The notes beneath the pieces are model-generated. The model did not search any database and was not told the DNA's origin. It worked only from the letters and a program-made list of their open reading frames with translations. Shown in pieces: positions 41,994 through 64,000 of a stretch of 64,000 bases of DNA. The stretch lies in NCBI GenBank assembly GCA_902761715.1, contig CACWLK010000012.1, positions 17,389 through 81,388 of the forward strand, read 5' to 3'. Made by a program: the position numbers and the translations under genes. The stretch comes from an uncultured Rhodospirillales bacterium. Its GTDB lineage: Bacteria; Pseudomonadota; Alphaproteobacteria; RF32; CAG-239. Position 1 is the stretch's first letter. Each line of letters starts with the position of its first letter.

Positions 41994-42098
41994 TAAAGTT
42001 TTAAATTTAATCCGCCCTATAGGTTCACGCTTATAGGGCATTTTTTTTATAACTCCCTGTGGTAAAACTACAGGGAGTTTTTATTGAAAGGTATTAAA

Positions 42099-44020: not shown

Positions 44021-44979
44021 AAACTATATTAGTAACCGGAGGAACAGGTTTTTTAGGTTCCAATTTGTGTATAAGGCTAATAAACGAAGGTAATAATGTA
44101 ATCTGCGTTGATAATAATTATACCGGACGTTTGAGTAATATCCAAAAAATAATGAAACACCCAAATTTTCGCTTTATTAAGCATGACATTTGTGAGCCTT
44201 TGGTGGTTGATGCCAAACTTGACCAGATTTATAATATGGCTTGTCCGGCATCTCCTCCGGCTTATCAGGGAAGTTACTCTATAAAGACAACCAAGACTTG
44301 CGTCTTAGGGGCAATTAATATGCTTGATTTAGCAAAACTGCATCATGCAACCATTCTACAAACATCAACTTCTGAAATATACGGTGAGCCCTTGGTGCAT
44401 CCTCAAGTTGAAAGTTATCGCGGAAATGTCAATCCAATTGGCATCAGAGCTTGCTATGATGAGGGCAAGCGTTGTGCAGAGAGTTTGTTCTTTGATTATC
44501 ACCGTCATGAGGGTGTTGATATTAAAGTGGTTCGTATTTTTAATACCTATGGTCCGAATATGGACCCGAATGATGGTCGCGTGGTTTCAAACTTTATCTG
44601 CCAAGCTTTGTCAGGGCAAGACATTACCATTTACGGCGATGGACATCAAACACGGTCGTTTTGTTTTGTTGATGACTTGATAGAAGTTTTAATTCGTATG
44701 ATGAACTCCGAAAAAGGCTTTACCGGACCAATTAATATCGGTAACCCAGGGGAATTTACCATTAAAGAACTGGCAGAAATGGTGGTTGCAAAAGTCGGTG
44801 GTAGTTCAAAAGTGGTTTATGAAGATTTGCCGTCTGATGATCCGACACAGAGAAGACCGGACATCACATTGGCCAAAACAAAACTCGGTTGGGAACCAAA
44901 AGTCAAACTTAGCGAGGGTTTGGATAAAACAATCGCATATTTCAAAACACAAATAAATCAGTTTAAAAAGGTTGCATAA
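44017..44979 (+). CDS. UDP-glucuronate decarboxylase (UDP-xylose synthase)
   Basis: [36 protein letters not shown]. Confidence 0.9.
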
Positions 44980-44980
44980 G

Positions 44981-46279: not shown

Positions 46280-46899
46280 ATGAATTAATTGTGGTAACTA
46301 AGGATCACCGAGAAATACAAACAGATAAATTATCCGGGCTTGATATAGAATGGTTGGGAAAAGATTCGTACGTTAAGATCCATGAACCATTTGTTATAAA
46401 TAAATGTTTTTTTCAAGTTGGAGATAATGGACACATTGAAATTCAGGAAAACTCAAATATGTTTGAGCTTTACATCCGAATGGCCGCGGCTAATTCGAAA
46501 GTTGAAATAGGTAATAATTTTATAACGTCTACTGCAAAGTTTATTTTAGCAAGGGGAGGAAGTAATAACTCCATCATTATAGGAAATAATTGCCTATTTT
46601 CATACAATATCTCTATTTTGACATCTGATGGGCATAGTGTTTTTGATGTGAACACAAAAAAACTCCTAAACAATTCCGGTGGAAATATAGTCGTTTCAGA
46701 TCATTGCTGGCTAGGAAATGATGTTTGCCTAACCAAAAGGGCAAAGCTTCCTCAAGATACGATTTGTGCAGCAAAATCGCTAATTAATAAAGAATTTTTA
46801 GAAAAAAACACAATGCTTGGGGGAATTCCTGCAAAGATTATAAAAAAATTTGTTTCTTGGGATATAAGACATCCAAACGAATATATGAGGGAGGTATAA
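46276..46899 (+). CDS. Hexapeptide-repeat (LbH) acyltransferase
   Basis: IGNNCLFS, SDGH, HCWLG, GIPAKIIK. Confidence 0.8.
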   Translation: MNELIVVTKDHREIQTDKLSGLDIEWLGKDSYVKIHEPFVINKCFFQVGDNGHIEIQENSNMFELYIRMAAANSKVEIGNNFITSTAKFILARGGSNNSIIIGNNCLFSYNISILTSDGHSVFDVNTKKLLNNSGGNIVVSDHCWLGNDVCLTKRAKLPQDTICAAKSLINKEFLEKNTMLGGIPAKIIKKFVSWDIRHPNEYMREV

Positions 46900-46900
46900 A

Positions 46901-49900: not shown

Positions 49901-49945
49901 AAATCTAGAGTCAGAGAAATTAGAAAATATCTTAAGAGTGGTTAG
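46901..49945 (+). CDS. Trimodular glycosyltransferase GT8-GT2-GT8
   Basis: Two GT8 domains (YLDCD, FNSGV, DQ.ILN, HY...KPW) flanking a GT2 (IIPVYN, FLDSDD, FED). Confidence 0.88.
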   Translation: MIVKPAFKERNVPVVFSVDENYAPYLSVCIYSLISNSSNTNNYDIWILDGGLTEVGKSQLKALANNRKNISIRFFDILNFKELKKKNFYISNHASLANYYRLFIPKIFFSYEKLLYLDCDLLINADIADLYAIDIGDNVLGVVKDACTYFDPDFWYKYCLEKVQIKKPYNYFNSGVLICNVKQMIDLSLTESSMQRLKKFNPVCWDQCILNSVLENKVMYLPLNWNFQWHWLLPEFAQKHPSKFVEYNFLQDYLNASKSPKILHYTSQVKPWKRWSAKPAQEWWKYAKKLPIYNDILEKTGLGQILSKKIIHTERTKKMADIKMSIIIPVYNVSQYLSRCLESVINQTLKEIEIICIDDESTDDSREILEKYAQQDSRIIFRTQKNQGQGSARNHGLNIAKGKYVQFLDSDDFYEPDCCKKMYEVMEKQKVDVACFEPNVIYEAYSFRKKEDAVYFSLKQRGLQTITTSTVKTIDVNCWNKTFRRKFLEDNNIRFPEKLHFEDVAFFWFWVTKAKVVYSLKEHLINYVRHQNSFVGNIFDRKSSHVMDAMKVNVIIYDYLKKNNVFNKFGEEFVKYIMFKLQWQLSFVPNSDIETRQTLINKTSDLLNKCDIDLELTEKEQLLFEAITKKQYYALNSGSTSDCQELKPFFEAQNIPVVFAVDKNYVPYLSVAIQSIIDNSDKFSNYDIVVLYTDLFEFQKRMLLSQAEGKKNVSVRFVNMDRWIDEYKLRSLMQINHITVSAYFRLLTPEIFENYKKIIYLDCDVVVNDDIAKLYNLDINNKSLAACLDTVISNNLDTCLIKQGLVPYLQNVLGMKDEKRYFNSGVLIINIEKLRETHIINYLFQLAKINNRFFHDQNILNAAFEDDYYELPPCWNLQYHVKFKWPDYKMKLSDSLMFLYDNISAKPSIIHYTSSEKPWNELMHTYTSDWWKYAKNSPFYEIILKTIFAKCSTANSMLPKINKDIFKRYRILLKYYKYKILSKILFGRARRKYAEKRKIFKSRVREIRKYLKSG

Positions 49946-49975
49946 GAATGCAAAGACATAACCTGAAAGTTTAAC

Positions 49976-51763
49976 ATGGTAAATAGGTCATATACAAAAA
50001 AAAAGAAAGATTTGGTTGATAAGGTAAAAGCATATTCTTTATTTAGAAACTATGCAAAAATTTACCCCTATGTGAGGCCGTATTTGTTTAGAGCAGTATT
50101 AGCCATTCTAATAACAATTCCTCTTGGTGCGATGGATGCTGTTATTGCATGGGTTTTGAAACCATATATGGATGTTGTAATGATTGAAAAAAGTGCAAAA
50201 GCGACATCTCTTTTGCCTTTGTTGGTCATTGTATTCAGTTTTGCGCAAAGTATGCTAAATTATGCGGCTACATATCTAAATACATGGGTTGGTCAAAGAA
50301 TTACAATGGACCTTAAAAAGAATCTCTTTAAAAAAATGATGCGGTGCGATGCAACGTTTTTCGATAAGACGACGTCTGGTGACATTATGTTTCGCTTTAA
50401 TCAAGATGCAGATCTTGCATGTAGTGGATTATTATCCAATTTAAAATTATTTACGACAAGGCTATTCTCATCTATATCATTAATTTGTGTCCTTATTTAT
50501 AATTCATGGCAACTATCTATTATTGCGATTTTTATCCTCTTTGGCGCCTTATTCCCTTTAACTAAAGTCAGAAAGAAAATAAAAGGCATTATGGATAAGA
50601 CGGTTTTTTCCGGTGCTAGGGTGATGACGCATTATAATGAAGCTTTTGCAGGTAATAGAGTTGTGTCGTCATTTAACTTATATGATTATCAATTTAATCG
50701 CTTTAACGAAACGCTTAGGTCAGTGTTCAAATTGGGAATGAACATGACAAAAAAGACTGGAATTCTTACCCCAATGATGCATTTTATAATATCAATTGGT
50801 ATTGCAGGTGTTATTTGGTTGGGCAGTTATCTAATTACAAACAATCAGCTTACACCTGGTGGATTTGTTTCATTTATTACTGCATTGCTCATGCTGTATC
50901 ATCCAATTAAATCAATTGGTTCAAATTTTACAAGCGTTCAAATGTCACTCATGGCTATGGAGCGTGTTTTTAGCCTTCTTGAAGAGAAACCTCGTGTATA
51001 CAATGCAGATAATGCAGTAAAAATTAAGGGCATAAATAAGGATATTTTGTTTGAAAACGTTTGGTTTGAGTATGAGCCTAATAGACCAGTACTGAAAGGG
51101 ATAAACCTGGACGTAAAAAAAGGACAAACTATAGCATTTGTTGGTAATTCAGGCGGTGGAAAGTCAACTATGGTTAGTCTTCTTCCGCGCTTTTACGATG
51201 TAAAACAAGGGGCCGTAAAAATTGATGGAAATGACATCAGAAATATTGATATAGATTCATTACGTTCACAAATAGCTATTGTTTTTCAAGATAATGTACT
51301 GTTTGCAGGAACTATCCGAGAGAATATATTACTAGGAAAAGAAAATGCAACAGACGAAGAAGTACGAAATGCAGTGCATAACGCTTGCTTGGACGAGTTT
51401 ATTGGCTCACTGCCTCTAGGCTTAGATACGGAAATTGGTGAACGTGGCACAAAATTATCTGGCGGACAAAAACAGCGAGTAGCCATCGCAAGGGCATTCT
51501 TAAAAAATGCTCCTGTTGTTATATTAGATGAAGCAACATCTGCGCTGGACAATAAATCTGAAGAAATAGTGCAACAAGCAATCTATAATTTAATGGCAGA
51601 CAGAACAGTTTTTGTTATTGCGCATCGTCTTTCTACCGTTAAAAACGCGGATTGCATTGTGGTAATTGATCATGGCGAAATAAAAGAGCAAGGAACACAT
51701 GAAGAGTTGCTCGCGCGAGAAAATTCCGTTTATGCGGCTTTATATAAGACCCAATTAAAATAA
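49976..51763 (+). CDS. ABC exporter, MsbA-like fused permease/ATPase
   Basis: 6-TM domain, GNSGGGKST, LSGGQ, LDEATS, IAHRL. Confidence 0.9.
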   Translation: MVNRSYTKKKKDLVDKVKAYSLFRNYAKIYPYVRPYLFRAVLAILITIPLGAMDAVIAWVLKPYMDVVMIEKSAKATSLLPLLVIVFSFAQSMLNYAATYLNTWVGQRITMDLKKNLFKKMMRCDATFFDKTTSGDIMFRFNQDADLACSGLLSNLKLFTTRLFSSISLICVLIYNSWQLSIIAIFILFGALFPLTKVRKKIKGIMDKTVFSGARVMTHYNEAFAGNRVVSSFNLYDYQFNRFNETLRSVFKLGMNMTKKTGILTPMMHFIISIGIAGVIWLGSYLITNNQLTPGGFVSFITALLMLYHPIKSIGSNFTSVQMSLMAMERVFSLLEEKPRVYNADNAVKIKGINKDILFENVWFEYEPNRPVLKGINLDVKKGQTIAFVGNSGGGKSTMVSLLPRFYDVKQGAVKIDGNDIRNIDIDSLRSQIAIVFQDNVLFAGTIRENILLGKENATDEEVRNAVHNACLDEFIGSLPLGLDTEIGERGTKLSGGQKQRVAIARAFLKNAPVVILDEATSALDNKSEEIVQQAIYNLMADRTVFVIAHRLSTVKNADCIVVIDHGEIKEQGTHEELLARENSVYAALYKTQLK

Positions 51764-51778
51764 TTTCAAGAAAAGAAC

Positions 51779-52561
51779 ATGGACGATATAATTAAACCAG
51801 ATGACTACTCTCTAGCTTCATATTATGTAGAAGCTTGCTTTGATAATACCATATTATCAAATGCATCGTGTTTTTTTTATGTATACAATCAGCAAATATT
51901 TTTGGTAACAAATTGGCATGTTGTTAGTGGAAGAGATTCAAATACACTAGAATGCCTCTCCAAAACAGGAGGAATCCCAAATAATTTAAAGGTATATGTA
52001 TTTGAAAAAACTAACAGTGAGGTATTTTATCCGGGGAAAGTTTGGAAGGTTCCTTTATTTAAGAATGATACTCCTCTATGGATTGAAAATACAAATAATG
52101 ATAATAATAGTAAAGTAGATGTAGTTGTTATTCCCGTTACAGTACCACAGGAAGTGAAAGTTTTTCCAATAAATACCCTAGAAGAACCGTTTAATGAAAG
52201 TACGTCTGTATGTGTAAAAGATGAGGTTTTTGTAATAGGATTCCCATTTGGAATTAAATGTTGTGATCTTCCTATTTGGAAACGTGCCAGCATTGCATCA
52301 GAGCCTTTGGTAAATATAAATGATAAACCAATTTTGTACGTGGATACAACTACAAAACCAGGAATGTCAGGTTCTCCTGTCGTTTATAAAGAGCGGCGCA
52401 GTGTTGCTCTTGGTGGAAAAAATGGTTTTAGCCGATTTTTTACGAAATTTATAGGGGTATATTCAGGAAGGGTATATGCAGAAAATATATATGAAGCTCA
52501 GCTAGGAATTGTATGGAAAGCCTCTGTTATAGATGAGTTAATAAAATCAAAATTTTCTTAG
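51779..52561 (+). CDS. Trypsin-like serine protease (no signal peptide)
   Basis: VTNWHVV, D, GFP, PGMSGSPV. Confidence 0.8.
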   Translation: MDDIIKPDDYSLASYYVEACFDNTILSNASCFFYVYNQQIFLVTNWHVVSGRDSNTLECLSKTGGIPNNLKVYVFEKTNSEVFYPGKVWKVPLFKNDTPLWIENTNNDNNSKVDVVVIPVTVPQEVKVFPINTLEEPFNESTSVCVKDEVFVIGFPFGIKCCDLPIWKRASIASEPLVNINDKPILYVDTTTKPGMSGSPVVYKERRSVALGGKNGFSRFFTKFIGVYSGRVYAENIYEAQLGIVWKASVIDELIKSKFS

Positions 52562-52575
52562 TTTCTATGGTATTA

Positions 52576-53739
52576 TTATTTTCCAATTTTAACAATTCCT
52601 GGACCGAATTTGTTTTCTAACTGGTCAATAACCCGGGAGAGTTTGTCATCTTCCGGCTCTAAATTATCAAACAGCGAGAACTGTTGTTTTTTGCCGATAG
52701 TAAGGTCCATCAAGGTGATTCCTGTTGCCCGGTAAGTCGTACCGCGGTGGTACAGCTGATCTAACAACTTATGCGCCGCATCTCGCAAAGTCTTTTCGGA
52801 GTTCGTTGGCTTTTCAAGTTTTGTTTCTAATTGATAAACAGCAAATTCCTTTGTCCGGACCATAACCGCAATAGTTGAACAATATCCGTTCCATAGCCGG
52901 AGCTTTTTAGAAGCATTGTGTATATGTCCGGACAGTGTGGAATGCAGGTAATCTATATCTTTTGAAAATTCTGCAAACGCGCTGGTGTCCTGAATAGATT
53001 GCGGTGGTTCAGGTTTTGGATTTACCGGTGAGACCGTTTCTCCCAGGAGTTCGTGTTTCAGAGTAACACCATTCACACCAAAGCCTTTTCTCAGCCAGCT
53101 GTCCGGCTTTGAAACATATTCTCGAATGGTGCTGATGTCATTATATAATAAGTGTTTAGAGTTCTGCCGGCCAACGCCACATACGGAATCGATCGGATCA
53201 TCGCCGACTTTTTCAAGGATCTTATCTACTTCCGGCCGGATCACATAAATACCACCGCATTTTTTTGCTTTATCACTAGCCAACTTTGCTAGGGTCTTAG
53301 ACGAACACAGGCCGATTGATACCGGAATTCCTGTGCACTTCAGGACTTCATCTCTGATATTAGTAATGAATTGCGTGTAGGTTATCTTGTGCAATTTATT
53401 AAAACCGGTCACATCAGCGTAGGCTTCATCAACCGAAACAACCTCAACATCAGGAGTAAAATCCCGAATGTTGTCCATAACTTGTTGTGATATTTCGTGA
53501 TAAAGAGAGTGATGTGCAGGAATACAAATGGCATCAGGATGTTCAACCTTGGCCTTAAAATACGGTTCGCCCATCTTAACGCCGAGTGCTTTTGCCTCCT
53601 TTGACCGGGAAACAATGATGCCTTTGTCTCCACCACCTGTCATGACACAGACAGGCTTGCCCTGTAATTTTGGATCCTTGACCCGCTCACAGGACACGAA
53701 AAAACAATCACAATCTATCAAAGCTATAATCCGTTGCAT
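52576..53739 (-). CDS. dinB: Y-family DNA polymerase (DinB/UmuC-like)
   Basis: IDCDCFFVSCE, SVDEAY, SIG....K.LAKLAS; start set at MQRII. Confidence 0.88.
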   Translation of the reverse strand: MQRIIALIDCDCFFVSCERVKDPKLQGKPVCVMTGGGDKGIIVSRSKEAKALGVKMGEPYFKAKVEHPDAICIPAHHSLYHEISQQVMDNIRDFTPDVEVVSVDEAYADVTGFNKLHKITYTQFITNIRDEVLKCTGIPVSIGLCSSKTLAKLASDKAKKCGGIYVIRPEVDKILEKVGDDPIDSVCGVGRQNSKHLLYNDISTIREYVSKPDSWLRKGFGVNGVTLKHELLGETVSPVNPKPEPPQSIQDTSAFAEFSKDIDYLHSTLSGHIHNASKKLRLWNGYCSTIAVMVRTKEFAVYQLETKLEKPTNSEKTLRDAAHKLLDQLYHRGTTYRATGITLMDLTIGKKQQFSLFDNLEPEDDKLSRVIDQLENKFGPGIVKIGK

Positions 53740-53741
53740 AA

Positions 53742-53756
53742 GAACAAGAGTAGAAC
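53742..53756 (-). promoter_or_regulatory. Alphaproteobacterial LexA (SOS) box overlapping the -10 of dinB
   Basis: GTTC-TACTCTT-GTTC (GTTC-N7-GTTC); TTGACT-17-TACTCT promoter. Confidence 0.8.
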
Positions 53757-53867
53757 ATAAGGACGAAAAAGTCAATGTGTATATAAGGTTATGCTCGTAA
53801 AATATCGTTAAAAAAGTGAGTCTCTCCCTAAAATACCCATAGGGTTAGTATTTGTTTAAAAGCATTT

Positions 53868-54293
53868 TTATATAAAATGATCAGCTATTTCTTTTTCAAT
53901 CTCATTAAATACTTGATCAAGAGTCAAAGTCCTTTTATTTTTTGCATATTCATCTAGTTCAAATATTGTAAAACAGATTTTTTTCTTATTAAGTTTTTGA
54001 ATTTGTTTTTTAACCCATTTTAAATCGACGCCGGATTCAAAGTCAAAAGGTGTAATTATAAAAAGTTTATCGTTTTTAGAGGGATATTCCAGTATATCAT
54101 TGATTAATTTTTCTTCCCTTTCTCGTAAATTCATTTGCCCTGTTAAGTTAAATAATATAAATTTTGAATTATAAGTTTTTATTTCCTCTAAATTTTCTAT
54201 TTTAATAGCTTTTACATGGTGATTTGATTCTAAATCTCTTACCAAAACAGAGATATGATTGCTGTTTATGTAAAAAAATATGCGTTTACTCAT
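53868..54293 (-). CDS. Hypothetical protein, possibly degenerate resolvase-like fold
   Basis: AGGAG RBS before MSKRIFFY; the longer ORF start overlaps the WYL gene and was rejected. Confidence 0.55.
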   Translation of the reverse strand: MSKRIFFYINSNHISVLVRDLESNHHVKAIKIENLEEIKTYNSKFILFNLTGQMNLREREEKLINDILEYPSKNDKLFIITPFDFESGVDLKWVKKQIQKLNKKKICFTIFELDEYAKNKRTLTLDQVFNEIEKEIADHFI

Positions 54294-54334
54294 TACATTC
54301 TCCTTTATTGTAATCAATGTATAAAAGACAGCCC

Positions 54335-54349
54335 TGTCAAAATATGACG
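54335..54349. promoter_or_regulatory. Putative WYL/DriD box 1
   Basis: TGTCA-AAATA-TGACG in the divergent intergenic region. Confidence 0.6.
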
Positions 54350-54405
54350 TATTTAGCTTGTGTTTTTCAATAAAATTGTTTAGAGTAACAATGAAGAGGT
54401 GCAGC

Positions 54406-55368
54406 ATGTCATACGAAAAAACGGAAGAATTATTGGATTTAGCAATTTGGATGCAGTCGTCACGTGAAGGTGTCAGCTTGAGAGATATTATGAATCGTTT
54501 TAATGTATCTAAGCGAACAGCTGACCGAATGAGAGATTTAATTTTAGCACGTTTTCCCCAAACGATGGAAGCTGATTCAAATACACGAGAAAAGCGGTGG
54601 TATATTCCCCAAGGAACATTACGTGATATAATCCAATTTAGTGCTGATGAATTATCCTGCTTAGAAATTGCCAAAGATGCATTAGATAAAAGCCATTTGA
54701 ATGATAAGGCTGAAGAATTAAATAAAATTATATTGAAAATAAAGGCTTCCATTAAACCCGAGACCTTTCGACGTATCGAACCTGATGCCGAAGAATTGAT
54801 GCGTGCGGAAGGAATTGCTTGTCGCCCGGGGCCGAAAATAAATATTGCACCGGAAATTATAAAACCCTTACGAGAGGCTATTTTATCGTGTCATCAAATC
54901 TTTATTACATATTATAATAAAAACACAAAGAAAATCAGCAAAAATATTCTTAAGCCGTATGGTTTCTTATATGGTGATCGGAATCACTATTTGGTTGCGG
55001 CTCACGCTGATGGCTTTGCTAATTCTAAACCCCATAATTTTATTTTGTTAAACATTAAAGAAGTAAAAATTTTACCTGAAACTTTCATATATTCGCAGGA
55101 CTTCTCATTAAAAAGCTACGCAGAGCAGTCATTTGGTGCATTTCAAGAAGATCCTGTTGATGTGGAATGGATCTTTGATAAAGAGGTTGCGGAAGAAGCA
55201 TCGCATTATATTTTTCACCCGACACAAAAAATGATTAAAAATAAGAACGGAACGCTGACTGTAAAATTCAATGCCGGCGGGCTAATGGAAATGAATTGGC
55301 ATTTGTACACATGGGGAAATCATGTAAAAGTTATTAAACCGAAGAAAGGAAAGCAAAGTGGCAAATAA
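54406..55368 (+). CDS. DriD-like wHTH-WYL-WCX transcriptional regulator 1
   Basis: EK...LLDLA..M.....GVSL..I..RF.VSKRTA.RMRD...FPQ; RPGP; PYGFLYG.R.YLVA; HPTQ; WHLYTWG. Confidence 0.88.
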   Translation: MSYEKTEELLDLAIWMQSSREGVSLRDIMNRFNVSKRTADRMRDLILARFPQTMEADSNTREKRWYIPQGTLRDIIQFSADELSCLEIAKDALDKSHLNDKAEELNKIILKIKASIKPETFRRIEPDAEELMRAEGIACRPGPKINIAPEIIKPLREAILSCHQIFITYYNKNTKKISKNILKPYGFLYGDRNHYLVAAHADGFANSKPHNFILLNIKEVKILPETFIYSQDFSLKSYAEQSFGAFQEDPVDVEWIFDKEVAEEASHYIFHPTQKMIKNKNGTLTVKFNAGGLMEMNWHLYTWGNHVKVIKPKKGKQSGK

Positions 55369-56077
55369 AGAAGTAAATTTAAAATGGTCTAGAGCATACA
55401 AAATTGATGAGTTAGACAAGGCGTTTACTAAAGTAGATGAGCTTAAAGGAAAAGGTGGACTTTACCTATGGATTGAGGGCAATACAAGACCTCGTGTCAG
55501 TTATATCGGTGAAGCCGAAAATTTTGAAAGCCGTTTCAGAGAACATATTGAAAATGTTATCCATGGTCGTTACACTGCCGTCCCATTTCATTGTGAAGAT
55601 GATGATTTATTAAATTCATATTATGAATTATTAACTAACGAAAATTGCGAATATTATCATCCTCAAATTATAAATTTTTCTGAAGATTTGGATAGTAAAA
55701 TTACAATAATAAAAAAAGGGATTGATTTAAAAATTAAACATCTTAAAAATACTTGTTTTTTATTCGCTGAAATTTCAAAGGAAAATGCTGATAAACGAAA
55801 AGAAATTGAAGCTATTTTTATGCAAGCAATGCACAAAAAATATTTTGAAGAAATATATAAATACCACCAAAATACAAAATTAAAAGATCTCCATTGGAAA
55901 TGTTTCAGCAAATCAAATACCAACTTTTGGGGAACTATTAGCTCATATCCCAAACACGATTATGTAATTACTAATGATTTTTCCGGTATAAATTCAGATC
56001 TTCACAAGAATGAATTAGAAAAAGTATTTAGCGAAACACGTAGTTGGGATAAAAATAAACGCTGGCCTATTAAATAG
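55358..56077 (+). CDS. GIY-YIG-like nuclease
   Basis: GGLYLW...SYIGEAENFESRFREH and a later conserved E; coupled to the WYL gene. Confidence 0.6.
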   Translation: MANKEVNLKWSRAYKIDELDKAFTKVDELKGKGGLYLWIEGNTRPRVSYIGEAENFESRFREHIENVIHGRYTAVPFHCEDDDLLNSYYELLTNENCEYYHPQIINFSEDLDSKITIIKKGIDLKIKHLKNTCFLFAEISKENADKRKEIEAIFMQAMHKKYFEEIYKYHQNTKLKDLHWKCFSKSNTNFWGTISSYPKHDYVITNDFSGINSDLHKNELEKVFSETRSWDKNKRWPIK

Positions 56078-57065
56078 TATCATCATATTTTCGGACCGGT
56101 ATTTTATCTAAAACAAAGGCACAATCTTCATAGTAAAAGTGGCGTTTCCAAAAACTTTCCCCATGAGCATTTTTAAGGCACTCTATATCTATTCGGTGCT
56201 TATAGTATTCTATTTCTTCTTGCCAGCGAATGACATTTACTTTATCTTCTGATTTGATTCCTGTTTCCTCAGGCGGCGTGTTTTCTAAGCTCCAAATTTT
56301 ACGATAAAGCGTTAAAACGACATCTGAAATATCAAATAACATCTTATCGTTATCCCGCTTCCACAATTCATCTATCTTTAACGGCAGATCCGTATGTGAT
56401 AACCCTAAAGATGCACTGATTAATATTGCACAATTATTTTTTTGAGCAAAAACCTTTAGATTATTTATTAAGTCGGCACTATAAGATAATATATTTGGCT
56501 TCACGTCCAAAAAAATAATTTCCGGCATGTACTTTTTATATAATTTTTCAATAGTATCATTCTCAAAACGATATACTGTTTCAAAAAATAAAGGAATGTC
56601 CGCTAATTCAAAATTTAACTTTTCCAATGAGGCTTTTAATCTGGGTAATGTCCAATTTTCTATATTTTGCTCAGTTAAATAAAGAACAGTTGTTTTTTGT
56701 TGAGCTATATAATATGCAGAACTGAGCAAAAATGCTGTCATTCCCATCAACGGCGTGCTCCAAATTGAAATAATATTGCTTTTATAGTATCCACCGGACA
56801 ATGGCTTGTTTAAGGATTTGAAACCTGTTGTAATTGTTTTTTCCTGATTTCGTTTATCTTCTGTAAGCACCGACAATGCAGAAGCATTTTGATAACTATC
56901 TAGTTGTCTCAATAGAGAATTAGCTTTTTTTAACTGCGAATCTATATCTGACAAAACACTTTCAGGCTCAACTTTTTGTATTTTTTTTGAAGATTCCTCA
57001 ATTGAAGTAATAATTGGTTGGAAATCATTTATGAATGCTTTGATAATTTCTTTTGCATCTAACAT
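56070..57065 (-). CDS. Degenerate DnaB C-terminal-like protein
   Basis: ITTGFKSLNKPLSGG; Walker A altered to STPLMGMT; SDVVLTLYR, KNAHGE. Confidence 0.65.
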   Translation of the reverse strand: MLDAKEIIKAFINDFQPIITSIEESSKKIQKVEPESVLSDIDSQLKKANSLLRQLDSYQNASALSVLTEDKRNQEKTITTGFKSLNKPLSGGYYKSNIISIWSTPLMGMTAFLLSSAYYIAQQKTTVLYLTEQNIENWTLPRLKASLEKLNFELADIPLFFETVYRFENDTIEKLYKKYMPEIIFLDVKPNILSYSADLINNLKVFAQKNNCAILISASLGLSHTDLPLKIDELWKRDNDKMLFDISDVVLTLYRKIWSLENTPPEETGIKSEDKVNVIRWQEEIEYYKHRIDIECLKNAHGESFWKRHFYYEDCAFVLDKIPVRKYDDTI

Positions 57066-57120
57066 TATATTCTCCTGTTTTTCGGCTCATTGTATGATAC
57101 CATTTTATAATATGCAACTG

Positions 57121-57135
57121 CGCCAAAATTTGACA
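57121..57135. promoter_or_regulatory. Putative WYL/DriD box 2
   Basis: CGCCA-AAATT-TGACA, 3 bp upstream of a minus-strand TTGCAT-17-TACAAT promoter. Confidence 0.6.
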
Positions 57136-57446
57136 GAGTTGTTTATAATCTATCTTAAATTTGACCCTTGAAGTATTCATTATTTTGCGGTCGATTAGAT
57201 TTATATTTATAAATTAGGATAATTCTTTTTTTTTGAGCATTTCCTGATAAATTAATGGCTTATCTACTTGGTTCGCAACTTTTCTGTGGGTGTTCGCTTG
57301 GGATGAGAGAACGAGCCCACGACTAAAAAAATTCATATTTTTTTATAAAAACGCCTTGTGTTTTCGGCTTTTTGGGGCTATAATTAACTCATGAAATAAA
57401 AAGTTGGACACTACGGTATCAGATGTCGTAGGTTTGGAAGTAGTGG

Positions 57447-57545
57447 CCGACCAAATAAAAAAGTCCCGTTTATCGGGACTTTTTTGTGTTTAATACGAGA
57501 TTATCATGTTTAATTTAGTTGAAAATCTAGTGCTTGAGAGATGAT
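57447..57545 (+). repeat. 99-bp direct repeat, right boundary (attR-like)
   Basis: Identical to 10505..10603; contains the 3' end of the DUF262 gene. Confidence 0.9.
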
Positions 57546-59543
57546 CTGTGGTGTCAAATGAATACCTGTCGTACCAGTTCCCCATCGACCTTTGTCTGCG
57601 ATGTTCTCACATAGTCCCTTTGGGTCATTTATTTTATCATAATCTAAAGATATATTTAAGAATAGTGCAGACTTTTGAGGAATAACATCAACAAAATTTG
57701 TTTCTGCTTTATACGCTATGTACAATTTCTTAAATTCCTTTTTAATACATGCATCGAGATTCATAATCTTTTTATCAAGTTCCTCGTAAATCCGCAAAGT
57801 TTCATCTGAAAAGCTATCAGAATAATGCTCAAATGTGTAATGTGTTCGTTTTTTTGATGGCTCCTCTGTATATTTTTGAATAACTTCATTACTTACAGTA
57901 GGAAACTGCCAAATTTTAAGGGCATAATTAGATAAAATTTTGGCTCTTTCTATGATTTTGTCTTTATTCCACTCTGTTTGATTGCGAATATACGAATTTA
58001 ATCTAAGCCCCGTATCCGTAAATCCACCTTTCATTTTTAATTTTTCAGAAAATGGTCTATCGCTCATTTCTGAGTTGTAGGCAGTAAGTGTTAGATTACC
58101 TATTGTATGTAAGTATTGAGTATGAATTGTCTGCCAATCATCACCCAGTGCTTCCTTCCACCCATTCCTTAAATTTTCGTTTTCAGGCATTACGTGTTCA
58201 ATTGTAAATGAGCCGAGATCAAGTTTTTCCTTGTTGTCATACTTCTCAAGCTTACCAAGTATATACTGGCGAATGCGCATATGGTATATATCTTTTTCAA
58301 CAAAGCGTTGTGCAAACTCCTCATCTTTAGGAAATTCTTTATAAGAATCAAGTAAAGTGTAGTTAGCACATATTGAATTCACGTAGTCATTTTGGCGGAT
58401 TTTATTCTTCATGACAGCAAATGTTTTGTTCAGCGAGTTTGTTGGAATTTCACAAATAGCTCTTCTAAATACGTAACTTTCCGTCAGCCGTAGTATTTGT
58501 ATAAATTCTTCCCGAGTTATCTTATTGTTTTCGTAGTCATTGTATATATACATTAAAAATGGATATGCTACTTCCATACGCAATAATCTGATGTCAGAAA
58601 AAATTTCATTAAGTTCTGTATCATTCGACTTTGAAAATAAAATGTTTGTATAGCATTTTGCATAGCTATAAATATCGGTGCAAAGCTCTTGGTTTGATGT
58701 ATTCAAACCTTGGTGGTATTTTTTGAATTCATCATAAACATTTCCCTCCTTCGGAATTCTAGAAATTTTCATTGTAATGTAATCTCTGAAAAAGCCGTCC
58801 ATTAATTCAGATTGCTTATTATAATTAAACAGCCTTTCCGTTGGCAACCACACGTTTTTATACAATTCAGTTTGTTCAAGATTGCTTAATCCCATCAATA
58901 TGTAATTTCGAATTAAATCCGATTGGGATAAGTCCATTCCGGTAGAATTAAGGCTCTCAAAAATAGATTGAGGATCATCTACAGAAGGGTCTAATGTTAC
59001 ATCAACAATTTGCAGTTTTGCAATTGCCTGTTCTATTTCATCTTGTGATAATCCAGATGAACTTATTTGCGTCAAGAAGTAGTGATATGCATCAAGGATA
59101 CGAGAATTTTTGACATCTTCTGTAGGTGAATTTTCAATCAATTTTATCAGGACATCTTTGTCACTGTATGTAAGAATAAGTTTATATAGATCACTTTCTT
59201 TGTCAGTGTCGTTTTTTAGAAATTTACGCGTTATAGCTGTATTGATTCCTTTTGATGATAAGTAATCACGCAGGGCAATTAACAATATTGTCAGCGTAGT
59301 CAAGCGTTGTTGACCATCAATAACCAAACTTTTTGATGTTCCTGAAATTGGTGCACTTTCTATTACGCTTACAATAGACCCGATGAAATGACCGTTTTTA
59401 CTGTTTTTTTCTAAGAAAACGATGTCATTCCACAACCTTCGGCACTGCTCTTCTTTCCAACTGTACGTACGCTGATATAAAGGAACAATAAATTGTTTCT
59501 CGCCATTAAAAATTTTTAATACATTTCCGTCTATCGCTCTCAT
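57510..59543 (-). CDS. GmrSD-type modification-dependent restriction endonuclease (DUF262+DUF1524, C-terminal DUF5655-like)
   Basis: PLYQRTYSW, IDGQQRLTT, IFESLN, TIEHVMP, IGNLTL..YNS. Confidence 0.88.
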   Translation of the reverse strand: MRAIDGNVLKIFNGEKQFIVPLYQRTYSWKEEQCRRLWNDIVFLEKNSKNGHFIGSIVSVIESAPISGTSKSLVIDGQQRLTTLTILLIALRDYLSSKGINTAITRKFLKNDTDKESDLYKLILTYSDKDVLIKLIENSPTEDVKNSRILDAYHYFLTQISSSGLSQDEIEQAIAKLQIVDVTLDPSVDDPQSIFESLNSTGMDLSQSDLIRNYILMGLSNLEQTELYKNVWLPTERLFNYNKQSELMDGFFRDYITMKISRIPKEGNVYDEFKKYHQGLNTSNQELCTDIYSYAKCYTNILFSKSNDTELNEIFSDIRLLRMEVAYPFLMYIYNDYENNKITREEFIQILRLTESYVFRRAICEIPTNSLNKTFAVMKNKIRQNDYVNSICANYTLLDSYKEFPKDEEFAQRFVEKDIYHMRIRQYILGKLEKYDNKEKLDLGSFTIEHVMPENENLRNGWKEALGDDWQTIHTQYLHTIGNLTLTAYNSEMSDRPFSEKLKMKGGFTDTGLRLNSYIRNQTEWNKDKIIERAKILSNYALKIWQFPTVSNEVIQKYTEEPSKKRTHYTFEHYSDSFSDETLRIYEELDKKIMNLDACIKKEFKKLYIAYKAETNFVDVIPQKSALFLNISLDYDKINDPKGLCENIADKGRWGTGTTGIHLTPQIISQALDFQLN

Positions 59544-59613
59544 AAATACCTCACTTTAAATGTGTTTATTTGTTTTTTACTGCACCCATTATTAAAATAT
59601 CGTTACAATCTAC

Positions 59614-60615
59614 CTAGTATTCATCGTGCAAGTTTTCGAACACTCCGGTGCTGGGGTCAAAAGAAACTCTCACTATTCCGGAATATCCGTCACTGTTTTG
59701 GGCGACTATAATCTCACATAAGTATTTTGTTTCTTTGCACTGTTTTTCCCAGCTTGCGTAGCGTTTTTCAAATTTCTCCGAGCTTTCATTGCGGCGTGGA
59801 CGAGGCTCGTTATTAATCAAGTAATAACTTTCACGATATATGAGCAGAACCTTATTAGCAAATGCGGGAGGACGACTTTCAAAACCTCGAATATCGCATA
59901 ACATGGGGCGCTTATCTGCCCTACTTTCAAGATTGCGGTTCAGCTGGGCAAGAACGATAATCGGAATTTCGAATCTGGTTGCCAGTTCTTTAATCTGACA
60001 CATAACGTCATCACAAGGTCCATCAAGACTTGGGGTAATTAGTTGTAAGTAATCAATAAATAACGCTCCAATCTGATGTTCCCGCCGGATATTTTGCAGT
60101 TCGTCTGCGATATCATCAATGTTATAAATGTTATCATAGTAATAAAGTGGCAATTTTTCCAAAGTATATTCGGTTGTAACTATGCGATCATAATTTTCGC
60201 GTATGTAAGAACCTTGCATTTGATATACAGGTATTGAGGCTTCCATACTGACTAGGCGCTCTGCAAACTTTTTGGAAGAATATTCGAGCCCTATATATAC
60301 CACACATTTATTATCATCGGGATTTTGCTGATGTTGAGCAGAAAAATCTGTTGCTATGTTACGAGCCATATTGATAGCAAGGGAAGTTTTACCCATTGCC
60401 GGACGCCCACCAATAAGCACAACATCGCCGGGACACAAACCATCAAGTTTGGTATCAAGAGCGGTTAAACCAGTCGATATGCCACGCAGTTTATCAGGAT
60501 TTTGGTATTTGAATGCCAAATCTATATCATAATTTTGAAGTATATGGGCAATATGGTTGTTATGAAAACTTTTATTGTTCTGTTGCTTTTGCTCATCGTT
60601 ATACTTTATAGCCAT
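59614..60615 (-). CDS. DnaB-like helicase C-terminal domain protein lacking the N-terminal domain
   Basis: GISTGL..LD, GRPAMGKTS, IDYLQL, LAQLNR.LESRADKRP; start at MAIKY. Confidence 0.8.
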   Translation of the reverse strand: MAIKYNDEQKQQNNKSFHNNHIAHILQNYDIDLAFKYQNPDKLRGISTGLTALDTKLDGLCPGDVVLIGGRPAMGKTSLAINMARNIATDFSAQHQQNPDDNKCVVYIGLEYSSKKFAERLVSMEASIPVYQMQGSYIRENYDRIVTTEYTLEKLPLYYYDNIYNIDDIADELQNIRREHQIGALFIDYLQLITPSLDGPCDDVMCQIKELATRFEIPIIVLAQLNRNLESRADKRPMLCDIRGFESRPPAFANKVLLIYRESYYLINNEPRPRRNESSEKFEKRYASWEKQCKETKYLCEIIVAQNSDGYSGIVRVSFDPSTGVFENLHDEY

Positions 60616-60663
60616 TTTACACCCTTTCAAATTATTCGCACGTACAAGAAAAGCCTCTTTCAT

Positions 60664-61002
60664 TTATTGATGGGTCTCAAAATACATTATAACAGGTATC
60701 AAAATTGCAAAAAATATTAGTCCGGTGAAGATGATAAAATCCATAAACTTTGGCATTATTTTATCAAGTATTCTGTTTTCTAAAAGGTCTTTGGGCAAAA
60801 CTCCGGCCAACTGTAAAAAACATAGACCGCCGGAACCTGTAAAGGTCGTAAAGACGGCTCGTTGTACTCCTACCAGTCCAAGTTCACCTGATAAGGTGTA
60901 ACAAACCCAATAACAAAGGAATACACAAAAAATTTGAATAATTTTCCAACCTATCCAGCGCATAAATGCTAGCCAGTTTATTTCTCGCAAATCTTGCAAC
61001 AT
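60664..61002 (-). CDS. Small membrane protein (about 3 TM)
   Basis: Hydrophobic, GAGGTG RBS, first gene after box 3. Confidence 0.65.
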   Translation of the reverse strand: MLQDLREINWLAFMRWIGWKIIQIFCVFLCYWVCYTLSGELGLVGVQRAVFTTFTGSGGLCFLQLAGVLPKDLLENRILDKIMPKFMDFIIFTGLIFFAILIPVIMYFETHQ

Positions 61003-61073
61003 CTTTCACCTCACTTTGTTTTTTATATCTTACAAGTGGTGTTTTTATCATGCAAGAGCAGAAAATTTAGTTT

Positions 61074-61088
61074 TGCCAGATTCTGACA
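61074..61088. promoter_or_regulatory. Putative WYL/DriD box 3
   Basis: TGCCA-GATTC-TGACA, 18 bp upstream of a minus-strand TTGCAT-17-TAAGAT promoter. Confidence 0.65.
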
Positions 61089-61325
61089 TTACTTCAAATT
61101 GAGGTATTCCTCTACTAAAGTTAGTGATTTTATGCGTTTTAAATTTTAGATAAAAGAGCCAATAGAATATTAACTCTCTAGCTCATCATTGTCGTCAGCC
61201 TCTTCGCCGTATGTCTCGCTTTCAACTGCGATATTTGCGATTTTTCTCGCAACTGCGTCATACCTGCGGTCTTCACTGACAAAGTCAAGAAGCTTTTGTC
61301 GTATACAACGTCTTTAATCTCGTAA

Positions 61326-61952
61326 TTAAAGGTGTCGTATGTCATTATTCAAACCTTTCAAAAATTTTCGAACATGAGGAATTGCTAGTCTCCTAACAGC
61401 ATGGACTACACCATAATCAGCACGTGTTAGACTTTTGAGGTATGCATCAGTTTCACGCATAAATTCTTTGATTAATGTTTCCTTTTTAATCATATAGTCC
61501 GCTATTACTTGCGTGTTGCCTGTTTTACGGTAGAGTTCTTCTACTCTGTCGTTATAAACGCACTTATCTTGTTCAGGATCGTAATACTTTTCTTCATCGC
61601 TCAATATTGTTAAACGAATATATGGTTTGTCGTTCCATTTTTCATGGCAACGTAGCATTATTTCCCGACCTTCTTCGTCTAGTAACAAATATGCTTCCGA
61701 AAAATCTGAGCAAATGCATTCTAACCAACGATACATATCATTGGGAGAATCAGCATATAAAGGCATATAAAACCCTGTTAACTTATTCCCAAAGTTAAGG
61801 TTATAAAAACAATCCATATAGGTTTTATAATGTTTTACCGTAAAATTATCGCAAACTTCAGGCTTGCTTTTAAGGATACGATCTCTAAAGCCTTCATGGG
61901 CATAAAAGCCAGCCGGTGTAAAACCTGATTCAACTGCCGCTATACTATACAT
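61326..61952 (-). CDS. Hypothetical protein
   Basis: 208-aa ORF, weak RBS, directly downstream of RNA candidate 1. Confidence 0.6.
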   Translation of the reverse strand: MYSIAAVESGFTPAGFYAHEGFRDRILKSKPEVCDNFTVKHYKTYMDCFYNLNFGNKLTGFYMPLYADSPNDMYRWLECICSDFSEAYLLLDEEGREIMLRCHEKWNDKPYIRLTILSDEEKYYDPEQDKCVYNDRVEELYRKTGNTQVIADYMIKKETLIKEFMRETDAYLKSLTRADYGVVHAVRRLAIPHVRKFLKGLNNDIRHL

Positions 61953-61984
61953 AGTTTAGTTCCATACTTCTCATATACTTATTA

Positions 61985-62477
61985 CTCTCTCAGAGCTGAA
62001 TGAGCCTAGTCCGGATGCAGAGAGGCAGGTTTGTGCAAACCTCAAAGCTACGCAACACGAGCCTATCCTTAGTTGTCAGGTGTTGGGAGCCGGACGTTAG
62101 ATCCCCTCGCAGAATCCGTTACCAAAACGGGGGCAAGGGGCTCGTTCCTCAGACCGACCTGGTTACAAATCCAGGGGTGTAAGGAAACGGTTAAATAAAG
62201 GGGGGGAAGCTGCTGATGAGTCCATCTCATCCCTTATCCATACGCCCGAAGCGACCCCTTAGACAGCGACTTTCGTCCCTGTAATAATCTCTAAATCTCT
62301 AACAACATATCTGTTAGTGACCAGGTTAAAACTACAACACGGCAGCTGATATGTAGCCACCGCAGTGCTGGTGAAGTCCAATTCTTCCCTATTACACTGT
62401 GGCATGCACTCCAAGCATCTGAAGCCACCCTCGGTTAAGGTCAAACGAGGAATGCTCTCTCCCCTAAACTTCGAGCT
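61985..62477 (-). ncRNA. Structured non-coding RNA candidate 1 (or long leader)
   Basis: TTGACA-17-TAGATT promoter (62512-62484), GC-rich with no credible CDS, many hairpins, 43-nt core shared with candidate 2; 3' end uncertain. Confidence 0.55.
62137..62179. repeat. 43-bp exact repeat, copy 1
   Basis: GGGGCTCGTTCCTCAGACCGACCTGGTTACAAATCCAGGGGTG, also at 62850..62892. Confidence 0.92.
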
Positions 62478-62531
62478 AATTATAATCTATCATAGCGTAA
62501 TATTAGTGTCAATCATCTCAAATTTCAGTTT

Positions 62532-62546
62532 TGCCAGATTCTGACA
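62532..62546. promoter_or_regulatory. Putative WYL/DriD box 4
   Basis: TGCCA-GATTC-TGACA, 19 bp upstream of a minus-strand TTGACA. Confidence 0.65.
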
Positions 62547-62616
62547 CCGCTTTATATTTGGTGCATCAATCGACACGGAAATATGTTTGTAAAAACTGAG
62601 GTAAAAGGTAAAGACA

Positions 62617-63096
62617 TAAATAAAAGAGGAGCGGATGGTCGCCCAGCTCCATCATCGAGAACACGCGATGCTATAAGCACCGGCTCCGCGGTTGAGCTTT
62701 CCGCTGCTCGCTCCTCTTAACGGAACTCCAGACCAGGCGATATGTCCACCTGCTGGGAGCCTTGAAAGTAACGCAGGGTAGACATATTACCTCCTTCCAA
62801 GAGCTAAAACCCCCAACACGCCACACCGGCTACAAATCCGGGGGATACGGGGGCTCGTTCCTCAGACCGACCTGGTTACAAATCCAGGGGTGGAGGAACA
62901 TACCGCTGCAGATTCCCTGAGGGAATCTCCCATAGATAAATCATACGGTAACAACAGCGGTATTAGAAGAACATTTTGAAGGATGAATATGTCAATAGTA
63001 TAGACTATCTAACCTACAAAATGAACTTATCACGTCTGCAATAATATGTGTTCAAGACTGCCACTGGCAGCACATATTCTTTTATACAAACGGACT
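62617..63096 (-). ncRNA. Structured non-coding RNA candidate 2 (contains a 22-codon sORF)
   Basis: TTGACA-17-CATCAT promoter, nested stems, ends in AAGAGGAGCG/CGCTCCTCTT stem plus U-run. Confidence 0.55.
62850..62892. repeat. 43-bp exact repeat, copy 2
   Basis: Identical to 62137..62179. Confidence 0.92.
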
Positions 63097-63150
63097 ATTT
63101 TTATGATGTATTATAAACAACACTTTGTCAATACACCTAAATTTCAGTTT

Positions 63151-63165
63151 TGCCATAATCTGACA
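63151..63165. promoter_or_regulatory. Putative WYL/DriD box 5
   Basis: TGCCA-TAATC-TGACA, 19 bp upstream of a minus-strand TTGACA; divergent from WYL 2. Confidence 0.65.
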
Positions 63166-63222
63166 TCATATTTACTTTTTTTAAATATCGTTGGTTTATA
63201 ATGGCGGAAAACGGAGGGGAAA

Positions 63223-64000
63223 ATGTTTTATGAAAAGACGCAAAAACTCTTAGAGTTGTCATTGTGGATGCAAAATGCCGATGCCGGCGTATCCATTGCT
63301 GATATTATGCAAAAATTCGGCGTTTCCAAGCGCACGGCTATCCGCATGAAAGACATGATAAAAGAGCAGTTTCCACAAATGCGGGAAATTTGCGGTGCAC
63401 ATAACACCAAACGTTGGTTTATTCCCCAAGGGGCGCTCAATAATTATGTCGGCTTTTCTCTAAACGAGGTTAATGCCTTGCAAAATGCCGTAAAACTAAT
63501 GAAAAAGAAAAATCCTCAAGATGTCGATTCACTTGAGATGATTTTGCATAAAATTAAGGCTTCTATGAGCAACGAATCACGCATGAGGATAGAACCCGAT
63601 GCCGAGGCATTGTTACAGGCCGAAGGCTATGCTTTGCGGCCGGGACCGAGAATTGTCGTTAATAAAGAATTTATGCAGACTTTGCGGAATGCGGTGATTG
63701 CGTGCAAAATTATCAAGATTAAATATCGCTCAAAATCAAAAGACGGGTGGCGGACTGTGTATCCTTATGGTTTTTTGTATGGGAACAAACATTATCTGAT
63801 TGCATGGCACACCCAGCGCAAAATTATGTGTTATTTTGATTTGAACAATATTCAGAAAATTAATGTAACCGATGAATATTTTGTGAGAGATCCTGATTTT
63901 TCTCTCGAGGAATTCAGCAAGCAATCGTTCGGTGTGTATCAGGAAGAGCCTTTTGAGGTGGAGTGGCTGTTTGATAAGGAAGTTGCCGCAGATGCCGCAA
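63223..64000 (+). CDS. DriD-like WYL regulator 2 (runs off the window; absent from the ORF track)
   Basis: GGAGG RBS; MFYEKTQKLLELSLWMQ...VSKRTAIRMKD...FPQM...RIEPDAEAL...RPGP...PYGFLYG, paralogous to 54406..55368. Confidence 0.88.
   Translation, partial: MFYEKTQKLLELSLWMQNADAGVSIADIMQKFGVSKRTAIRMKDMIKEQFPQMREICGAHNTKRWFIPQGALNNYVGFSLNEVNALQNAVKLMKKKNPQDVDSLEMILHKIKASMSNESRMRIEPDAEALLQAEGYALRPGPRIVVNKEFMQTLRNAVIACKIIKIKYRSKSKDGWRTVYPYGFLYGNKHYLIAWHTQRKIMCYFDLNNIQKINVTDEYFVRDPDFSLEEFSKQSFGVYQEEPFEVEWLFDKEVAADAA

Follow-up and report, generated by a model that had tools for sequence, protein, structure and literature searches.

The 64,000-nt stretch of DNA analyzed here (the window) sits on the 85-kb contig C12 of an uncultured Rhodospirillales bacterium from the rumen and carries, towards its end, two genes for WYL-domain regulators, WYL1 and WYL2, along with several copies of a 15-bp pseudo-palindrome of the form YGYCA-N5-TGACR, hereafter referred to as the box. 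A pattern search of the window recovered the box at 54335, 57121, 61074, 62532 and 63151, all five copies being intergenic and two of them standing ahead of the WYL genes, exactly as the initial annotation had it. The same pattern is also found at 56221, 40149 and 32850, in each case inside an open reading frame (ORF), the ORFs around 32850 and 40149 belonging to a prophage block. These three matches were rejected as sites and treated as chance or unexplained; the one at 56221 is probably due to chance. The features considered below are collected in Table 1. Note that WYL2 runs past the end of the window, the complete gene being found at L001 10612-11571.

Table 1. Boxes, genes and putative RNAs around WYL1 and WYL2 (positions in the window).
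Feature	Position	Strand	Remarks
UmuC/ImpB-family translesion polymerase	52576..53775	-	Pfam IMS 2.6e-42, IMS_C 1.1e-14
141-aa protein, first gene behind box A1	53868..54293	-	no family assigned
Box A1, WYL1-type	54335..54349	.	18.4 bits; 71 bp before WYL1 start codon
WYL1, DriD-clade wHTH-WYL-WCX regulator, 320 aa	54406..55368	+	Pfam WYL and WCX
239-aa gene overlapping WYL1 stop	55358..56077	+	Pfam GIY-YIG E 7.4e-4, 20.2 bits, below 22.6-bit cut-off
331-aa RecA-fold (weak DnaB_C/UvsX-like) protein behind box A2	56070..57065	-	Pfam DnaB_C E 5e-4, below cut-off
Box-like match	56221..56235	.	inside ORF 56070-57065; no promoter-like layout either side
Box A2, WYL1-type	57121..57135	.	19.1 bits; upstream of 331-aa RecA-fold gene
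GmrSD-family type IV restriction enzyme	57510..59543	-	Pfam GmrSD_N 1e-38, GmrSD_C 7.6e-24; PADLOC Orf5 2.8e-170
349-aa DnaB_C-type ATPase, second gene behind box B1	59614..60663	-	Pfam DnaB_C 2.2e-50; PHROG DnaB-like helicase 1.5e-42
112-aa protein, first gene behind box B1	60664..61002	-	'membrane protein' is a label of the initial annotation only
Box B1, WYL2-type	61074..61088	.	22.0 bits; upstream of 112-aa/DnaB_C-ATPase operon, which may extend to GmrSD
208-aa protein at end of RNA-1	61326..61952	-	ORF
RNA-1, leader of ~520 nt, no ORF, GC 0.50, behind box B2	61953..62477	-	from sequence
Box B2, WYL2-type	62532..62546	.	22.0 bits; upstream of RNA-1 (leader of 208-aa gene)
RNA-2, GC-rich transcript of ~480 nt, no conserved ORF, behind box B3	62615..63096	-	ends in hairpin and U-run
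Box B3, WYL2-type	63151..63165	.	21.7 bits; divergent region between RNA-2 and WYL2, 72 bp before WYL2 start codon
WYL2, DriD-clade regulator, 319 aa	63223..64000	+	Pfam WYL; continues to window-equivalent 64182 past window end

WYL1 and WYL2, which are 50% identical, had been described as DriD-like, and both match the PDB structures of DriD over their full length (WYL1 versus 9pfq/8tp8: E 3.6e-52, residues 1-314; WYL2: E 1.1e-46, residues 2-311). No transcription factor other than DriD was returned by this search at E<=10, the remaining rows being at chance level; in particular, no BrxR, CapW or PafBC chain was among the matches of either protein even at that threshold. As judged from their sequences, WYL1 and WYL2 are true DriD-clade proteins. 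Their alignment to DriD is gap-free for the first ~57 residues, with a numbering that agrees with the G18, A20, E21, E27, R37 and R41 of the DriD papers. Both proteins keep R37 and R41, the arginines that in the DriD–DNA crystal of PMC10853764 read G2 and the partner of C4 and whose DdaA counterparts are given as R47 and R51 in PMC13010146; these arginines fit the conserved G and C positions of the box. Among the DriD residues reported in PMC13004042 to contact the C-terminal domain of the polymerase alpha subunit (R121, R122, P125 and E128), R122, P125 and E128 are common to both proteins, and R121 is found in WYL1 alone. As for the pocket that binds single-stranded DNA (ssDNA), Y168 and Y192 from the residue list of PMC10853764 are present in both.

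The box has the geometry of the DriD site. The DriD consensus given in PMC10853764 is ATACGAC-N7-GTCGTAT, with G2, C4, G12 and C14 highly conserved, in agreement with the GnC-N7-GnC geometry given in the initial annotation; the box found here, TGCCA-N5-TGACA, shares G2, C4, G12 and C14, has the same N7 spacing from C4 to G12 (CGxC-N7-GxCG), and often carries T and A in place of the outer C1 and G15 of the DriD/DdaA pattern. The Acinetobacter DdaA motif, CGWCA-N5-TGWCG (PMC12392091, section 26), a form also taken by the recA and aciT sites that PMC13010146 cites, differs from the WYL1 box of the window by one outer base.

The box is in clear excess in the window: the pattern gives 10 strand-matches at 8 positions for 0.71 expected, and 10 matches were never reached in 100 dinucleotide-preserving shuffles. 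In the whole genome, which is rated 100% complete (1.43 Mb in 26 contigs), the pattern occurs at 24 positions, nine of which are on C12, and the 15 positions off C12 are about as many as the window shuffles predict for 1.4 Mb. An extended form of the box, TTTTGCCANANTCTGACA (TTT prefix, ATC-type centre), is found only four times in the genome and always on C12, three times within the window and once 1.4 kb beyond its end. Two further boxes lie outside the window, at window-equivalent positions 65139 and 65368: the latter is the fourth extended box and the former, 229 bp away, is a perfect palindrome of the same type. When the genome was scanned with a weight matrix built from 17 distinct sites of other genomes only, the top four matches were all C12 boxes, three of them inside the window and the fourth just beyond it, and 7 of the 12 best positions fell inside 11 kb. 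In our view, this ranking strongly indicates functional sites that are linked to WYL1/WYL2-type regulators.

The place of the box before wyl genes is conserved as well. A scan of species-representative genomes yielded 17 loci with relatives (31-99% identity), nearly all from uncultured rumen or gut Alphaproteobacteria, and 16 of these loci include upstream sequence. In 13 of them, a box starts 72-90 bp upstream of the wyl start codon (12 at -72 to -75, the position seen in WYL2 orthologues, and one at -90); the remaining three comprise a distant Rhizobiales locus with a box at -32 and two loci without a box there. The box and its place are kept while the surrounding sequence varies between clades. 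In a third clade of homologues, a box is found at -38 to -88 in 19 of 29 loci, and the other 10 have none by the pattern used. Both wyl promoters of the window have 31 nt between the end of the box and the -10 element (8 nt, a poor -35 and 17 nt). The conserved position fits autoregulation, which had been proposed from the two window genes: with the box at about -51 of each wyl promoter, both regulators would probably feed back on themselves. In three related genomes, boxes also occur in pairs 43 bp apart (L006 5884/5927, L008 1191/1234 and L018 5522/5565), possibly as tandem sites, one for each of two dimers. Among the 201 genomes of the order searched, 75 had DriD-clade genes, which makes these genes accessory.

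The boxes head the promoters of the targets listed in the initial annotation, and its gaps between box and minus-strand -35 element hold: 3 bp at 57121 (TTGCAT), 18 bp at 61074 (TTGCAT) and 19 bp at 62532 and 63151 (TTGACA). Over 49 box positions taken from the window region, the 17 related loci and contig C17, two layouts can be told apart. In layout B, that of the WYL2-type boxes, the box is followed by 18-19 nt, TTGnnn (often TTGACA), 17 nt and a -10-like hexamer. It is present at 23 of the 49 positions in the direction away from wyl and at none in the opposite direction; many of the 23 are orthologous copies, and at least a dozen precede different downstream sequences. In the window, the minus-strand series is 18 bp, TTGCAT (61050-61055), 17 bp, TAAGAT (61027-61032) for box B1; 19 bp, TTGACA (62507-62512), 17 bp, TAGATT (62484-62489) for box B2; and 19 bp, TTGACA (63126-63131), 17 bp, CATCAT (63103-63108) for box B3, which on its plus strand is separated by 31 nt from TATAAT (63197-63202) with no good -35. 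The centre of a layout-B box is near -62 relative to the predicted transcription start. Several unrelated cargo genes have ORFs beginning ~15-18 nt past the predicted start; behind box B1, the start codon at 61002 lies ~18 nt downstream of it, an arrangement also seen in L003 and L004. Across orthologous loci, the 19-nt stretch from box to -35 varies in sequence and the box and the spacing stay.

In layout A, that of the WYL1-type boxes, a hexamer starting with TAT follows the box after exactly 11 nt at seven of seven sites (54335 and 57121 in the window, five in L012-L014; TAnnnT background 0.022), the box, by sequence, overlaps the -35 position, and the promoter has no -35 element. On the minus strand, box A1, whose distance to the start codon of the divergently oriented 141-aa gene is 42 bp, is thus followed by 11 nt and TATACA (54318-54323), and box A2 by 11 nt and TATAAA (57104-57109); an alternative reading of the latter promoter is 3 bp, TTGCAT, 17 bp, TACAAT. 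The same spacing is found in the didA oligonucleotide and its 'optimized -35' version in the Methods of PMC13004042, where the -35 occupies box positions 4-9 and 11 nt separate the end of the 15-mer from the -10; according to section 13 of that paper, all DriD promoters have one common distance and no recognisable -35 hexamers. The distances from box end to -10 found here are thus 11, 31 and 41/42 nt and differ by about two and three helical turns, so that the dimer would stay on about one face of the helix.

We propose that the boxes are bound by the WYL regulators of the DriD/DdaA family that the island itself encodes, acting as ssDNA-triggered activators of two sub-regulons and of their own genes, and we give this proposal a probability of about 0.7. 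A regulator dimer would read G2/C4 and G12/C14 of the pseudo-palindrome via R37/R41; by analogy with DriD and DdaA, its WYL domain would bind ssDNA produced by DNA damage or phage replication, and the ssDNA-bound regulator would then help RNA polymerase start transcription. Activation is the more likely direction, as compared to repression, because of family membership and box position.

Several observations weigh against this proposal. The ssDNA pocket is only partly kept: S172 and R178 are found in WYL2 only, R189, R204 and R207 are lost, and W206 is replaced by F. G18 and A20, the small residues of DriD at the polymerase interface (PMC13004042), are N18 and D20 in WYL2 and S18 and R20 in WYL1. 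Boxes 61074, 62532, 63151 and 65368 lie in a common 40-nt promoter module (73-83% identity), so that these four are not independent events within the genome but partly copies. The -35 and -10 elements of layout B are near-consensus. Such promoters usually need no activator, and the presence of parts of RNA-1 and RNA-2 in contigs from RNA libraries (see below) would fit constitutive expression. Finally, all transcription starts were predicted from hexamers, those of the window falling near 54311, 57097, 61020, 62477, 63096 and 63209.

Strong unaided promoters would also suit the opposite mode of action, in which the boxes are operators of BrxR/CapW-type repressors and the WYL proteins hold the island's defence and cargo promoters down until ssDNA appears. 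WYL regulators located beside defence genes, including the gene for the GmrSD enzyme BrxU, are described as repressors in PMC9122601, PMC8565348 and PMC11662680, and the cargo here includes a GmrSD gene. We nevertheless consider repression unlikely: full-length matches link both paralogues to DriD and none, even at E<=10, to a BrxR or CapW chain; a layout-B box stops 18-19 bp short of the -35, a position from which a dimer would leave polymerase unhindered; and layout-A promoters lack a -35, like activator-dependent promoters. The 40-nt module raises another, quite improbable explanation, namely that the strong boxes are copies of one duplicated promoter module riding with shuffled cassettes, with no dedicated regulator and a merely coincidental likeness to the DriD box. 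The mosaic nature of the RNAs and cargo between strains goes in the same direction, but such copying does not account for the variation between box and -35 at orthologous loci that keep box and spacing, for WYL1-type and WYL2-type boxes that have no common flank and yet occupy the same place before wyl, or for the fit between the base-reading arginines and the conserved G and C. That the matches arose by chance in AT-rich intergenic DNA containing a TTGACA-like promoter half is hardly credible: the TGACA half-site does overlap the -35 consensus and the number of positions off C12 is near chance, but the shuffles, the ranking by the other-genome matrix and the box before wyl in 13 of 16 loci contradict it.

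If the boxes are sites of DriD-family activators, the WYL1 sub-regulon (54335 and 57121) would comprise the 141-aa/UmuC-like operon and the RecA-fold ATPase gene, and the WYL2 sub-regulon (61074, 62532, 63151, 65139 and 65368) the 112-aa gene with the DnaB_C ATPase gene and perhaps GmrSD, RNA-1 with the 208-aa gene, RNA-2, and a 190-aa/70-aa gene pair, assuming that each paralogue pairs with the boxes of its own type. The 141-aa protein behind box A1 had been called resolvase-like, a label that we rejected, since no resolvase match, nor any other match, was found for it in Pfam, PHROGs or PADLOC. A search of the Atlas gave a lead only, small FtsZ/tubulin-GTPase-like proteins (score 0.83, TM 0.72), and it is speculation, by analogy with didA and aciT, that the protein is a damage-induced division inhibitor. 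From strand and spacing, its gene appears to head an operon with the UmuC/ImpB-family polymerase gene, which the initial annotation did not include. Homologues of the 141-aa gene adjoin WYL1 orthologues in L012 and L014, with a box at the same 42-bp distance, and L012 also has a homologue of the polymerase. On the other side of box A1, the 239-aa gene is probably co-transcribed with WYL1. The RecA-fold protein behind box A2 also has a UvsX-like PHROG match (E 5e-4).

Behind box B1, the 112-aa protein has no match in Pfam, PHROGs or PADLOC, and the pairing of its gene with the DnaB_C gene is conserved in L003 and L004. The GmrSD gene starts 70 nt downstream of the DnaB_C-type ATPase gene and is perhaps on the same transcript. 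Between the end of the GmrSD gene and the RecA-fold gene, the plus strand of 57355-57490 has a promoter (TTGTGT-17-TATAAT) followed by ~90 nt and a hairpin with a U-run, with no box; this is a small-RNA candidate. The 208-aa protein behind box B2 is likewise without match in Pfam, PHROGs and PADLOC, and its gene is conserved together with RNA-1 in L002 and L029. Past the window end, boxes 65139 and 65368 precede a short terminated RNA and the 190-aa/70-aa gene pair; the 190-aa protein and a 223-aa protein gave nothing in PHROGs, PADLOC or Pfam. In other genomes, the same promoters head genes for ankyrin, MORN, AAA_5 and DUF6994 proteins and for several proteins without family. Since the genes behind these promoters differ across genomes, the WYL2 neighbourhood is a variable cargo site, and only part of its cargo resembles defence. 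Still further on (L001 12772-14805, window-equivalent 65383-67416), the minus strand carries, pointing toward the last box, genes for an ankyrin-repeat protein, a DnaQ/RNase T-type exonuclease and two family-less proteins; the contig ends ahead of their promoter.

RNA-1, RNA-2 and a third paralogue on contig C17, RNA-3, are 450-520 nt long with a GC content of 0.45-0.50; the 2-kb bins of the window between 54 and 62 kb have 0.32-0.36. RNA-1 has homologues in L002-L004, L029 and L032. None of the three has a conserved ORF, and none matches an Rfam 15 family, as searched over window 50000-64000 at E<=0.1 and over nine loci at E<=0.01: the sole row in the window was alpha_tmRNA (18 bits for a gathering score of 50), and the loci gave only tRNA and a sub-threshold plastid row. 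Compared with shuffles, the minimum free energy (MFE) of folding has a z of -5.9 for RNA-2 and -3.6 for RNA-3 (coding controls: +0.8 to -1.8), and RNA-1 folds no more stably than its shuffles (z -1.1). Contigs from four RNA libraries of gut samples (three studies), in which DNA may be present, cover 62011-62179, 62638-62853 and 62884-63085; the four sets do not cover 60600-62010, 62180-62637 and 63086-63300, which proves nothing about silence. Two other readings of the RNAs were rejected. A 22-aa ORF with a strong ribosome-binding site in RNA-2 aligns to ORF-free sequence in RNA-1 and RNA-3, and as for pseudogene debris of polyvalent proteins, blastx on both strands finds only a module peptide of ~16-28 aa.

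This peptide corresponds to a hairpin module of ~45 nt that is common to the RNAs and consists of an outer 7-bp stem, an inner stem and a conserved 8-nt loop, with one copy in RNA-1 and two in RNA-2 (window 62132-62196 and 62799-62909; also L019 3341-3449 and L024-L033). Over 16 distinct copies, 86% of cells pair and 10 of 14 pairs are changed on both sides, a degree of covariation that none of 500 shuffles reached and that was far lower in slid controls; the 17 G.U and 13 A.C cells do not tell the strand. In L025, L028 and L031, the module lies inside large polyvalent-protein ORFs, directly after an LPD3 domain, and outside the module no similarity between the RNAs and the polyvalent proteins was found by blastx. 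The module may be a junction for cassette exchange. A literature search combining DriD and small RNA (sRNA) returned unrelated papers only.

Boxes with the same promoter layouts are also found away from C12. At C17:21605, a layout-B promoter with an 18-nt gap precedes RNA-3, which adjoins a tRNA gene; next to RNA-3, two direct repeats of ~130 nt (L019 2680-3035) start like the 5' part of that tRNA gene (L019 2948-3033) and may be remnants of repeated integration at the tRNA. At C4:62944 (L067 1445-2406), beside secA, a layout-B promoter (-62) precedes two genes, one encoding an AAA_21 C-terminal fragment of 106 aa and the other a member of the UDG superfamily; here the regulon may include a DNA-repair target on the chromosome. 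A third DriD-like gene (C21:3175-4136) is broken into two reading frames near residue 155, owing either to a frameshift or to faulty assembly; 51 bp ahead of the gene is a layout-A box, with TAAATT 11 nt after it. The genome also encodes LexA and RecA. In the matrix scan of the genome, recA has no convincing box, the nearest box-like sequence being C1:117886 (14 bits, inside a minus-strand ORF). Three other matches were set aside as chance or unexplained: C9:49019 has no fixed promoter layout, and C18:5386 and C21:10290 are inside ORFs. The initial annotation, which had called the regulon island-local, thus stands as regards DriD-family regulators with boxes of their own, the above-background frequency of the motif in the window and its concentration on C12, but 'island-local' is too strong in view of the sites on C17, C4 and C21, and one gene name was wrong.

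Two other parts of the window lie upstream of this region. Window 10435-42719 looks like a prophage: tRNA-Pro (10435-10511) and a large serine recombinase gene (11466-13172) are followed by a ~30-kb block whose listed ORFs of at least 150 aa are all on the plus strand, with the exception of a 173-aa ORF immediately upstream of the tRNA, and which ends near an HU-like gene and a small resolvase gene (42084-42719). It is followed by a 9-kb cluster of glycosyltransferase, UDP-glucose dehydrogenase and ABC-transporter genes (43019-52561).

As described for DriD and DdaA, the WYL domain senses ssDNA directly, and repair and defence genes are switched on without LexA. The locus would extend this system to uncultured low-GC gut alphaproteobacteria, on accessory DNA beside intact LexA and RecA. 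It also amounts to a natural experiment, since related regulators in one genome appear to use the same box at 11, 31 and 41/42 nt from the -10. If this is confirmed, the DriD fold can activate from two places, the -35 position and a class-I-like one further upstream, which bears on the single assembly mode that has been published. A more specific proposal can be made only tentatively: on complete sigma-70 promoters, WYL2-type DriD homologues might act class-I-like from a site near -62, further upstream than the published DriD site by three helical turns. What they most constantly produce would be GC-rich mosaic RNAs of 450-520 nt and not proteins; these RNAs, induced by DNA damage or phage alarm, would be built around the covarying hairpin module and have no described relative.

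A WYL activator that joins DNA-damage and anti-phage control is already known, namely DdaA (PMC12392091); the novel features here are the WYL2-type promoters with their upstream, class-I-like layout, the occurrence of two layouts within one genome and the RNA targets. The closest comparison is with DriD of Caulobacter crescentus (PMC10853764, PMC13004042, PMC9186387). The window proteins are like DriD, as described in these papers, in their full-length homology, their order of winged helix-turn-helix (wHTH), three-helix bundle, WYL and WCX, their alphaproteobacterial host, R37/R41, the geometry of the 15-bp pseudo-palindrome and a box at their own gene, and the WYL1-type boxes are, by sequence, like that of didA, 11 nt before a -10 without a -35. 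They are unlike DriD in the half-sites (TGNCA here, CGAC for DriD), in the WYL2-type boxes, which are shifted upstream by ~31 bp and stand ahead of a complete -35/-10 promoter, in the replacement of G18/A20 at the polymerase interface, and in the presence of two intact paralogues and one split copy in a 1.43-Mb genome with LexA and RecA. The targets also differ, being island cargo and RNAs here and recA, didA and bapE for DriD. In this respect, the description of the target set as unusual holds as far as recA, didA and bapE are concerned, but the set is less unusual in the light of DdaA, which, upon DNA damage, controls both DNA-repair and anti-phage genes, the latter including restriction-modification and CRISPR-Cas genes (PMC12392091, section 31).

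DdaA of Acinetobacter and other Moraxellaceae, compared here by its published properties, has a nearly identical box motif (PMC12392091). As described there, DdaA replaced SOS and is a core, genome-wide regulator; here, by contrast, LexA is present and the boxes, a few outliers apart, are clustered within 11 kb of accessory DNA. Finally, the locus is like those of BrxR and CapW (PMC9122601, PMC8565348, PMC11662680) in having a WYL regulator beside defence genes, including one for a GmrSD-family enzyme, and a palindromic site in a divergent promoter region, and unlike them in that the window proteins have no detectable sequence match to the solved BrxR and CapW structures and the WYL2-type boxes are clear of the predicted core promoter elements.

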